Source: a virus (Duplodnaviria; Caudoviricetes). From it: a stretch of 64,000 nucleotides of DNA. The notes below the pieces were generated by a model. That model did not search any database and had not been told where the DNA came from. It worked only from the letters and a program-made list of their open reading frames with translations. The stretch is taken from the IMG/VR virus record IMGVR_UViG_3300021958_000035, positions 1 through 64,000 of that record, one strand, 5' to 3'. Of this stretch, positions 14,591 through 16,357 are shown piece by piece. The first letter of the stretch is position 1, and the number at the start of each line of letters is the position of its first letter. Both the position numbers and the translations under genes were made by a program.

Positions 14591-15463
14591 ATGATTGAAA
14601 GTCTTACATCCGAACAAGAAGCAAAAATGAAACAACATGTGGATCGTTGGATTCAGATTGGTACATCCACCGGACCTTGCGACCGAGAAAAATGCATTGA
14701 GTTTGCTAAAGAAGTCCACACCATCGCTGGACTTCCCGAAGCCAAACATATTTTCTTTGCTAAGTCTCCAATCGAAGCTATTGAAATTATACAGAAATTT
14801 CACACTGACAATGGATTTTATATTTCTAAAAATGAAACACTAAACGGTATGATGCTTGGATATAATGAGGCGTGGCTCTCCTTTTATTCTTACATGTGTG
14901 AAGTTCTTAATGTGGAACTAGTTGATGGCATTTACCCATTGTTTAAGCTCGCAGAGGTTTGTGGATGGTGGTCGTCCTATACTCATAATGACGAAACATA
15001 TCTTGTATTTCAAGATAGACCAGAAGTGATCCGTATGCAAGATAAAGTTTTGCATTGTGAAGATGGACCTTCGGTAAAGTTTAGTGATGGATTTTGTATA
15101 TGGAGTATCGAGGGACATCGAGTTACTGAACAAATTGTTATGAGTCCAGAAACTCTAACTTTGCATCAAATTCACGGTGAAAGTAATCAAGATATTAGAT
15201 CTATCATGATCAATCGTTATGGTTGGACAAAATATCTTGAAGAAACTGATGCCGAGTGTATTGATAGCCGACATAATGATATTGAAAATACAATTGAGGC
15301 ATTGTACAATACAAAAATCTTTGGCAAACGTTTTGTTGCAACTTGCCCAACTGGTAGAGTGTTTGTTATGGGGGTAGATAATGATGTAGAAAATTGTGAA
15401 CAGGCTCAAAAGTGGCTTGGTAATGATGTTGATCGTAAGTGTAATGTTATTGGAAGAACTTAA
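14591..15463 (+). CDS. DUF6745-like protein
   Basis: LT.EQ...W...G.ST...DR, CGWW, RP......LHCEDGP...F.DG...W...G, I..E.N...R..MI..YG motifs. Confidence 0.75.
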   Translation: MIESLTSEQEAKMKQHVDRWIQIGTSTGPCDREKCIEFAKEVHTIAGLPEAKHIFFAKSPIEAIEIIQKFHTDNGFYISKNETLNGMMLGYNEAWLSFYSYMCEVLNVELVDGIYPLFKLAEVCGWWSSYTHNDETYLVFQDRPEVIRMQDKVLHCEDGPSVKFSDGFCIWSIEGHRVTEQIVMSPETLTLHQIHGESNQDIRSIMINRYGWTKYLEETDAECIDSRHNDIENTIEALYNTKIFGKRFVATCPTGRVFVMGVDNDVENCEQAQKWLGNDVDRKCNVIGRT

Positions 15464-15482
15464 ATTTTAAAGGAGAGTAATT

Positions 15483-15929
15483 ATGACGAATGCAATTCAG
15501 GTAATTGTTGAACATGCGGCAAAGATCAAGAATGGTAAACACGATAAGGTTCAGCCGGGACAACCTTTGCGATTTAGTGAGGCTTGTACGGTTAATGATC
15601 GTATCTGGCAAGGAGATTTGGCACTGACTATTTCCAACAAGGTTCCAGAAGGTTATACAAAATCCAAGAAGAAAATCCTACAGTTGGTTCCGGGTGAGAA
15701 TGTTGGTTCTCGTCATGTGCTTGATTCTTTGGATGGAGTGAAAATGTATATTCCACAAAATTGGAATGAAGAAAGTTTGATTGGACCTTACTTGATTCTT
15801 TATCAAGAACGTACCGTGGAGCATCCCATTCATGGCCCCGTAACTATTCCCGCTGGTTTTAGTGTACATTGTACATATCAACGTGAATATGATAAGGAAC
15901 AGGAACGAGAACATCGTGCCCGTGACTAA
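15483..15929 (+). CDS. conserved partner of DUF6745-like proteins
   Basis: QGDL...G...G..H...HP.H....IP.G.....QREY.......RARD pattern. Confidence 0.7.
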   Translation: MTNAIQVIVEHAAKIKNGKHDKVQPGQPLRFSEACTVNDRIWQGDLALTISNKVPEGYTKSKKKILQLVPGENVGSRHVLDSLDGVKMYIPQNWNEESLIGPYLILYQERTVEHPIHGPVTIPAGFSVHCTYQREYDKEQEREHRARD

Positions 15930-15960
15930 ATTTCTACAAAACAGTGGGGCCGGATTAAAA

Positions 15961-16116
15961 ATGAAAAATAACAGGAATCAGGTCAGGAATCAGGTCATGA
16001 ATCAGGTCGTGAGTCAGGTCAGGGATCAGGTCTGGGGTCAGGTCTGGGATCAGGTCGAGAATCAGGTCTGGCGTCAGGTCAGGAATCAGGTCAGGGATCA
16101 AACTAATGAAAAATAA
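15961..16116 (+). CDS. QVxx tetrapeptide-repeat mini-protein 1
   Basis: MKNNRN + 10 QVxx units. Confidence 0.55.
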   Translation: MKNNRNQVRNQVMNQVVSQVRDQVWGQVWDQVENQVWRQVRNQVRDQTNEK

Positions 16117-16310
16117 CAGGAATCAGGTCTGGGATCAGGTCGAGAATCAGGTCTGGGGTCAGGTCAGGGGTCAGGTCTTGTATCAGGTCTGGGATCAGGT
16201 CTGGGATCAGGTCTGGCGTCAGGTCAGGCGTCAGGTCAGGCGTCAGGTCGAGAATCAGGTCAGGAATCAGGTCAGGGATCAGGTCGAGAATCAGGTAGGG
16301 AATCAGGTCA
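15978..16310. repeat. 12-bp tandem repeats TCAGGTC-N5 (about 26 units in two blocks)
   Basis: directly visible; both blocks start with ATGAAAAATAACAGGAATCAGGTC. Confidence 0.95.
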
Positions 16311-16357
16311 GACTGGTGCATTTGGGGCTTCCAAAATCAGGTCTGGAGTCAAGCTAA
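16106..16357 (+). CDS. QVxx tetrapeptide-repeat mini-protein 2
   Basis: MKNNRN + 16 QVxx units. Confidence 0.55.
   Translation: MKNNRNQVWDQVENQVWGQVRGQVLYQVWDQVWDQVWRQVRRQVRRQVENQVRNQVRDQVENQVGNQVRLVHLGLPKSGLESS

Follow-up and report, generated by a model that had tools for sequence, protein, structure and literature searches.

Introduction

Tandem arrays of tetrapeptides that vary in copy number have been described in mycobacteriophage Tweety, where the central part of gp54 (also Che8 gp57 and PMC gp51) is encoded by an array of 12-nucleotide (nt) units, giving 48 tetrapeptide units in which two residues are fixed and two vary (G/W/Q and S/Y) (PMC2884959). Third codon positions of that array are invariant, first and second positions vary, and the repeat number differs among relatives (PMC2884959), with changes in repeat number allowing Tweety to escape the Phrann gp29/gp30 defence (PMC9262239). 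The former report also cites variable region 2 of bbp36 in Bordetella phage BMP-1, where isolates differ in the number of copies of a tandem 24-bp element (as cited in PMC2884959). A literature search on hypervariable phage tetrapeptide repeats returned nothing, and one on DUF6745, the protein family considered here, found no paper naming it. Cultured members of this family are present in Mycobacterium prophage prophiGD102-1, whose gp38 carries ~50 fused xxQL units, and in Microcystis phage Ma-LMM01, whose gp174 and its neighbor gp175 are both annotated as hypothetical.

Here we analyze the first 64 kb (64,000 nt; referred to as the window) of a 95-kb IMG/VR phage record (IMGVR_UViG_3300021958_000035; 57% complete), and within it a block at positions 14591-16357 in which a DUF6745 gene and a partner gene are followed by two overlapping mini-genes made of 12-bp units that encode the tetrapeptide xxQV. 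An earlier note, made from the sequence of this DNA alone, had drawn attention to the block and had proposed that a repeat module was split off from the DUF6745 gene and either supplied in trans or kept as a donor reservoir. We favor, with a probability of roughly 60%, a reading in which the block represents a widespread phage module in its split form and the peptides act together with DUF6745 and its partner as tuning elements.

Results

A repeat-less DUF6745 gene and two free tetrapeptide mini-genes. The first gene of the block (14591..15463, + strand; 290 amino acids [aa], isoelectric point [pI] 5.0) matches Pfam PF20530 with 67.4 bits (cut-off, 27; E = 1.4e-18) over residues 111-228, as well as phrog_31813 (E = 4.4e-07), and this hidden Markov model (HMM) check bears out the assignment that the earlier note had made. 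We found 95 homologues, mostly 280-296 aa in length, and a profile built from 44 relatives retrieves 17,356 representatives (50% identity representatives) at E <= 0.001. The AlphaFold2 (AF2) model of the protein has a predicted local distance difference test score (pLDDT) of 89, with a dip to 78-84 around a linker, and a predicted template modeling score (pTM) of 0.78; its top structural match in BFVD is Ma-LMM01 gp174 (E = 7e-15). No relative with a solved structure was found (best Foldseek match in the PDB, E = 0.098), and a wide VIA-align search with the model gave a best Z of 4.6 over ~60 residues only. Searching the locus against cultured phages gave no match with blastn and distant matches only with tblastn. 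PADLOC and NCBIfam matched none of the four proteins of the block nor a fused form, and the PADLOC result means only that the four are not among the known defence proteins.

As the earlier note had seen, the DUF6745 protein of the window is without an array: it has no period-4 run, and the gene contains no copy of TCAGGTC. Since 125 of the 150 best DUF6745 representatives also carry no array, the array is a subtype feature and no bar to membership in the family.

The repeats are found downstream of the partner gene, on the + strand, in mini-gene 1 (15961..16116; 51 aa, pI 10.7), which encodes MKNN, 10 xxQV units, and RDQTNEK before its stop, and in mini-gene 2 (16106..16357; 83 aa, pI 10.7), which encodes MKNN, 16 xxQV units, and a 15-aa tail. 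The array (15973..16309, + strand) has the unit NNG NNT CAG GTC (= xxQV) and falls into blocks of 10 units (15973-16092) and 16 units (16118-16309) separated by a 19-nt stop/start junction, with a degenerate eleventh unit, RDQT, closing block 1 and a frame-shifted unit remnant at 16337-16343 in the tail of mini-gene 2. Tandem Repeats Finder (TRF) reports a single period-12 array at 15972-16311 (28.2 copies; score, 286). The count of about 26 units in two blocks and the identical 24 bases that open both (15961-15984 and 16106-16129) were as previously described, and the mini-gene boundaries needed correction in an otherwise accurate description, with mini-gene 1 ending on TAA at 16114-16116 and overlapping mini-gene 2, which is in the +1 frame, by 11 nt.

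The units are strikingly uniform at the DNA level. Gln is encoded by CAG in 26/26 units and Val by GTC in 25/26 (GTA at 16295-16297), and the preceding codon ends in T in all 26, in full agreement with the earlier reading; unit positions 3 (G), 6 (T), and 7-11 are invariant, position 12 has a single exception, and the remaining positions (1, 2, 4, and 5) are freely variable. The unit vocabulary is small, as had been noted, with 12 types (RN, WD, EN, RD, WG, WR, RR, MN, VS, RG, LY, and GN) in place of the seven listed before. The window has 31 copies of TCAGGTC where 7.2 would be expected, 26 of these at 15978-16343, and the array is far beyond chance. Codon preference is not the cause of this uniformity, since among the long open reading frames (ORFs) of the window only 16% of Val codons are GTC and 45% of Gln codons are CAG.

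In the mini-genes of other phages (1,892 units, found via the DUF6745 protein and not via the DNA word), 71% of units have CAAGTC as their core and 16% have CAGGTC, single loci being nearly exclusive for one or the other, and GTC accounts for 87% of Val in units across lineages versus 25% in the background. The TCAGGTC core, invariant in the window as claimed earlier, is hence a local version of a broader T-CAR-GTC core, of which CAAGTC is the commoner form elsewhere. Frozen synonymous sites combined with variable codon positions 1 and 2 indicate that unit copying outpaces mutation, with the persistence of a unit being decided at the protein level. A database search with the mini-proteins gave 28 unnamed matches, 25 of them in one-sequence clusters, and an Atlas search gave unnamed viral clusters only. 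A match of mini-gene 2 to DUF4816 was dropped as a low-complexity artefact (20.5 bits; cut-off, 29.4). We also observe MN units (ATG AAT CAG GTC) inside the arrays (15997-16008 in the window, and often several per gene in related contigs L229-L233), which could act as internal starts giving nested shorter peptides.

Complementary distribution of fused and free arrays. Longer DUF6745 homologues carry tetrapeptide arrays (xxQV, xxSV, xSQ[LI], or xxQL) at one site, past the conserved SP..A motif and ahead of YG.H[DE]A.WL.FY, between an N-terminal subdomain and the C-terminal domain. This is where the earlier note had placed internal arrays, between an N-terminal SP motif and a W..FY motif, and the window protein has a 19-aa linker at this site, around residues 74-95. 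Scanning viral contigs for four consecutive TCAGGTC-N5 units returned at least 117 stretches, which, among the matches listed, are mostly internal DUF6745 arrays.

The distribution of fused and free arrays was surveyed in 80 DUF6745 loci retrieved from viral contigs via conserved C-terminal peptides, together with loci retrieved via the DNA word. DUF6745 genes were called by HMM, and a free mini-ORF was defined as an ORF of <=170 aa with >=5 Q[VI] at period 4, a definition limited to Q[VI] runs that other types of free repeat would escape. After clustering of DUF6745 at 90% identity, with >=1.5 kb of flank required and mini-ORFs counted within 3 kb, 27 of 51 repeat-less clusters have free mini-ORFs (1 to 10 each) and 24 have none, compared to none of the 75 array-bearing clusters (Fisher's exact test, P = 1e-13, which overstates independence because the locus sets were searched differently and the rows are phylogenetically related). 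The fraction of 27/51 is a lower bound, because the DUF6745 locus L148, which is empty in its 6-kb flanks, has arrays ~6-7 kb from DUF6745 in a 92%-complete genome (G006) with an array cluster. The co-occurrence of free QV genes with repeat-less DUF6745 genes, a survey of which the earlier note had called for, is thus observed, and, together with the variation among relatives described below, it supports the idea of a split-off array.

Where mini-genes are present, they often adjoin DUF6745 or the partner on the same strand, often at 1-70 nt, and in one genome (G004) a mini-gene overlaps the end of DUF6745 in ATGA; split-type loci contain up to 17 mini-gene copies per locus. In a FastTree phylogeny of the columns past the insertion site (unrooted, without bootstrap, and the only tree built), the split state is found in two or more parts of the tree that lie well apart, a small clade of the window with L150 and L151 and a large 42-row group, and well-supported branches force at least five changes of state.

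Two observations concern arrays away from DUF6745. At least 17 QV mini-genes, grouped in four clusters (138-1303, 89285-90665, 96902-97183, and 101955-102574) on both strands, are present on the 102-kb contig G002 (IMGVR_UViG_3300010234_000004; 63% complete), whose recorded part has neither DUF6745 nor partner. TCAGGTC-core xxQV arrays are also found within an unrelated ~270-aa protein (L115:3203-4012, L121:5335-6141, and L124) that matches no Pfam family and has a conserved C-terminus ending in GKFLGEYD. The presence of xxQV arrays in both DUF6745 and this protein implies that the array module entered at least two scaffolds.

Hypervariability between near-identical strains. In a metagenome scan, we obtained five contigs in which the DUF6745 gene is 99% identical, one of which ends before the array. 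Upstream of the array, the five differ from the window by 10-11 positions in 2,605-2,955, without gaps (99.6% identity), and in the three contigs that reach across the array, the 177 nt directly downstream show no difference from the window (100% identity). The distance from the partner stop to the next gene is 460 nt in the window, with 2 mini-genes, 643 nt in L231 and 641 nt in L233, with 3 mini-genes each, and 906 nt in L232, with 4 mini-genes; L229 has at least 4 mini-genes before the contig ends in the array. Unit order and number differ between strains, as foreseen in the earlier note, with new unit types WS, VD, GD, and RS appearing, and all 13 complete mini-genes in the four related strains are intact. 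Gains and losses affect whole mini-genes together with the QTNEK-stop/MKNN-start junction (the start being MKNN or MENN), as is expected from unequal crossing-over between units. The locus is therefore hypervariable between near-identical strains, and the four-gene system first suggested is a conserved gene pair with two to at least four mini-genes in the phage population.

Other sequencing runs were compared with the window as assembled contigs only, and their summed depth in the array is a mixture that includes other arrays. In these runs, the DNA contigs are interrupted at 15989 and 16256, as would be expected if assemblers are unable to resolve the array.

Selection on the QV frame. Stop codons were counted in 1,272 non-redundant units from 80 loci, picked by DNA periodicity alone and without ORF calls, with the expectation taken from position-wise base frequencies. 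The QV frame has 0 stops versus 88 expected, and the other five frames are at expectation (observed/expected, 26/35, 254/251, 5/6, 447/421, and 1,046/1,065). Stop avoidance is confined to the QV frame, and the mini-genes are under selection as coding sequence. Every mini-gene has an in-frame ATG start and a stop a few codons past the array, with stop/next-start overlaps of 11 nt in the window and ATGA in other lineages, and the ATG starts and overlapping junctions are present in every variant.

A conserved partner gene next to DUF6745. The partner gene (15483..15929, + strand; 148 aa) encodes a divergent member of the phrog_27831 family with an N-terminal extension of ~35 aa. The window protein has no direct PHROG match at E <= 0.01, and its homology to this family is supported by iterative search, conserved motifs, and adjacency to DUF6745: a Jackhmmer search started from it gave 146 ORF matches across the fetched loci (near-duplicate loci included), 23 of 32 aligned relatives match phrog_27831 (best E = 2e-11), and the homologues lie directly before or after DUF6745 where coordinates were checked, in fused and split loci alike. 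Because the partner adjoins DUF6745 in both forms, we regard DUF6745 and partner as a two-gene core to which the array is an accessory that can be fused, free, or absent.

Eleven columns of the partner alignment are invariant (Q43, G44, D45, P55, G75, H78, H114, H117, Q133, R134, and D148), and this set of Q-G-D, three His residues, and a C-terminal QR...D suggests metal binding or catalysis by this small protein. Searches with it gave no sequence match in the PDB, no Atlas cluster with a name, and no Pfam family at a meaningful E-value. In prophiGD102-1, the array-bearing DUF6745 gene is followed by gp39 (L236:3184-3528), which matches phrog_2857, labeled as a tail fiber protein, in a non-structural region; gp39 was considered as a partner and rejected (hhalign probability, 0.1).

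Genomic context of the block. The source is an estuarine, T4-like phage with T4-type genes for RIIA, a UvsX-like recombinase, ribonucleotide reductase, a DnaB-like helicase, and a family-B DNA polymerase. Long ORFs are on the + strand throughout the window, and the block sits among small accessory genes. A sigma-70-type promoter-like site (14232..14259, + strand; 12/12 consensus with TG extension) may act as the early promoter of the block. The 12/12 site that follows it lies at 16863-16891 (consensus matching only), and no terminator-like site was found between the two. From these consensus matches, the genes from DUF6745 to the mini-genes would form one early transcription unit. This unit may also include the 165-aa gene downstream (16386..16883, + strand), which lies before the next promoter-like site, has an N-terminal hydrophobic segment, and gave no family in Pfam and PHROG searches; its membership in the module is uncertain. 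An in-frame 186-nt deletion within this gene (window 16534-16721) is present in L231-L233 and in one RNA-library contig.

Directly 5' of the module lies a full-length DUF1501 gene (13325-14551; E = 1.5e-83) with a twin-arginine-like N-terminus. DUF1501 is typical of Planctomycetota-like bacteria, and the gene may therefore be auxiliary and hint at the host. Further away, the polymerase gene is split or interrupted at 47831-52001, with one ORF (47831-49477) corresponding to positions 248-616 of phrog_405 and another (50436-52001) to positions 626-1055, and with an ORF for an RNase_T-type exonuclease (49668-50342; 224 aa) between them. The window has 4 tRNA genes, three of them at 8653-9008; tRNA-Trp (20263-20335) is overlapped by a permuted transfer-messenger RNA (tmRNA) call of ARAGORN (19991-20306) that is probably false.

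Discussion

A proposed tunable module and its mode of action. In the explanation that we favor, the module would consist of the DUF6745 protein, a small His-rich partner of the phrog_27831 family, and a hypervariable xxQV array, which in many relatives is an in-frame insertion in DUF6745 and in this phage would have been detached and be produced as separate basic peptides, two to four in number and ~50-85 aa long, probably from one early operon, with the start/stop overlaps providing translational coupling. Slippage or unequal recombination among the 12-nt units would give rise to new variants, shuffling the small unit vocabulary and duplicating mini-genes along with the stop/start junction, and the peptides would serve as exchangeable, fast-evolving specificity or tuning elements in phage-host conflict. 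Parts that are fused in many genomes and separate neighbors in others are a classical sign of joint action. It is because of this fusion/fission pattern, and because the peptides are basic (pI 10.7) and the DUF6745 protein acidic (pI 5.0), that we favor peptides that work with the pair of DUF6745 and partner, perhaps in physical association with DUF6745. The early-gene position in a T4-like phage would fit a possible role in host takeover or counter-defence. A more specific version, in which the mini-proteins plug into a complex of DUF6745 and partner at the site of the fused array and re-aim this core at host targets such as defence proteins, is speculative and, in our estimation, rather unlikely.

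Several points weigh against this explanation, in addition to the limits of the exclusion statistics and of the tree given above. No mini-gene was found within 3 kb in the 24 of 51 repeat-less clusters mentioned, and Ma-LMM01 gp174 differs from the fused forms in having a non-repetitive insert and no tetrapeptide array, so that the core can work without an array. Three incomplete contigs (G002, G003, and G005) carry many mini-genes and neither DUF6745 nor partner on their recorded part. In the model of a fused form (L045), the flanking helices are the same and the array between them is folded into two helices (residues 83-101 and 104-147), a shape that we do not rely on because pLDDT there is only 56-71. 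Contigs from a salt-marsh RNA library span DUF6745, the partner, and parts of the mini-genes, which is not proof of transcription, since DNA carry-over is possible. Translation of the mini-genes is a prediction from their sequence.

Alternative explanations. The main live alternative is that the mini-proteins are stand-alone hypervariable peptides that act independently, their adjacency to DUF6745 reflecting only local duplication and a common origin, with arrays having escaped from the gene. Such independence would account for the three contigs with up to at least 17 mini-genes, for QV arrays in the unrelated ~270-aa scaffold, and for the arrays ~6-7 kb from DUF6745 in G006. The three contigs are, however, only 44-63% complete with arrays mostly at contig ends, and the 0/75 exclusion and the frequent direct abutment with ATGA overlaps are hard to explain without a shared role; on this evidence, we consider independent action improbable, although it has to be taken seriously. 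Much less credible is the donor reservoir of the earlier note, in which silent units would feed a DUF6745 array by recombination, as in the donor cassettes that diversify pilin and VlsE. A small shared vocabulary and clear recombinational shuffling are what such a reservoir would show, but there is no recipient array in the window DUF6745 or in the 27 split-type clusters, no locus surveyed has both an internal array and free mini-genes, and the starts, stops, and coupling overlaps are kept, with the QV frame alone free of stops.

The same depletion of stops in one of six frames argues against a repeat that functions as DNA or RNA (iterons, structured RNA, or a recombination hotspot) with incidental ORFs, as do the in-frame peptide repeat within thousands of DUF6745 proteins and the ATG and stop architecture kept in all strain variants. 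We therefore regard a purely nucleic acid-level function as highly improbable, even though synonymous sites are frozen, each locus keeps to one core, and the 87% use of GTC across lineages, against a background of 25%, is only partly explained by concerted evolution. An RNA role that adds to the coding function is conceivable. Programmed +1 frameshifting at an A-rich junction, joining successive mini-genes into a polyprotein, is suggested by the +1 offset, by the 11-nt overlap at GAA AAA TAA, and by neighboring frames that are open across the window array. It deserves even less credence, given an in-frame ATG with an MKNN or MENN start at every junction, ATGA overlaps with a different frame offset in other lineages, and stops at the expected rate in the non-QV frames across loci. 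The reading to which we assign the lowest probability is that the mini-genes are functionless, decaying debris of an array excised from DUF6745: the tail of mini-gene 2 is indeed a frame-shifted, degenerate array piece, but 13/13 complete mini-genes are intact in four strains despite rapid turnover, the same organization is seen in two or more DUF6745 clades that lie well apart and reaches up to 17 copies at a locus, and selection against stops is strong. A diversity-generating retroelement was also considered and rejected, with no RVT_1 match in the 95-kb record (57% complete) and variable positions that are not adenine-limited.

Implications. If the mini-proteins do plug into the core pair and re-aim it, the block would represent a self-renewing combinatorial counter-defence library in T4-like phages, in which new specificities come from recombination of 12-nt units. 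Independently of this, the locus shows the hypervariable tetrapeptide array to be a separable module, repeatedly fused to, or detached from, DUF6745 in evolution. Changes in gene number and unit order between flanks that stay 99.6-100% identical are the behavior expected of an arms race. The split form also offers a handle on the function of DUF6745, as it allows the core pair to be expressed apart from the variable peptides or in combinations with them, and it points to a second, independent case of a tunable tetrapeptide repeat, only Tweety gp54 being known so far.

Comparison with known systems. The core pair has its cultured prototype in Ma-LMM01, where gp174 (DUF6745, phrog_31813) and gp175 (phrog_27831, E = 1.5e-71) are adjacent, as in the window. 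Fused-array DUF6745 proteins, represented by prophiGD102-1 gp38 and the metagenomic P0090, have the core domain and the repeat period in common with the window, and several of them, such as P0090 with its xxQV units, have QV residues and a W/R/G-D/A/N vocabulary in common with it as well. In the window, by contrast, the array lies outside DUF6745 and consists of overlapping mini-genes downstream of the partner. With variable region 2 of bbp36 and with diversity-generating retroelements, the window has phage-encoded localized hypervariation in common, but here it takes the form of unit reshuffling and is not adenine-directed, and unit length and protein are different.

Compared to Tweety gp54, the window array has the same 12-nt units, the same codon-position signature, and a copy number that likewise differs between relatives. 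The differences lie in the fixed residues, which are Ala-Ala in gp54 and not Gln-Val, and in the architecture, since the gp54 array is fused between unique terminal domains and free array genes have not been reported, whereas the window array is without flanking domains and shows no homology to N- or C-terminal domains of the gp54 type. As gp54 has no Pfam match and no DUF6745 domain, we regard it as an analogue and not a homologue of the system described here. It is nevertheless the nearest parallel, and the only one that has been studied, and the analogy between the two may be one of function.

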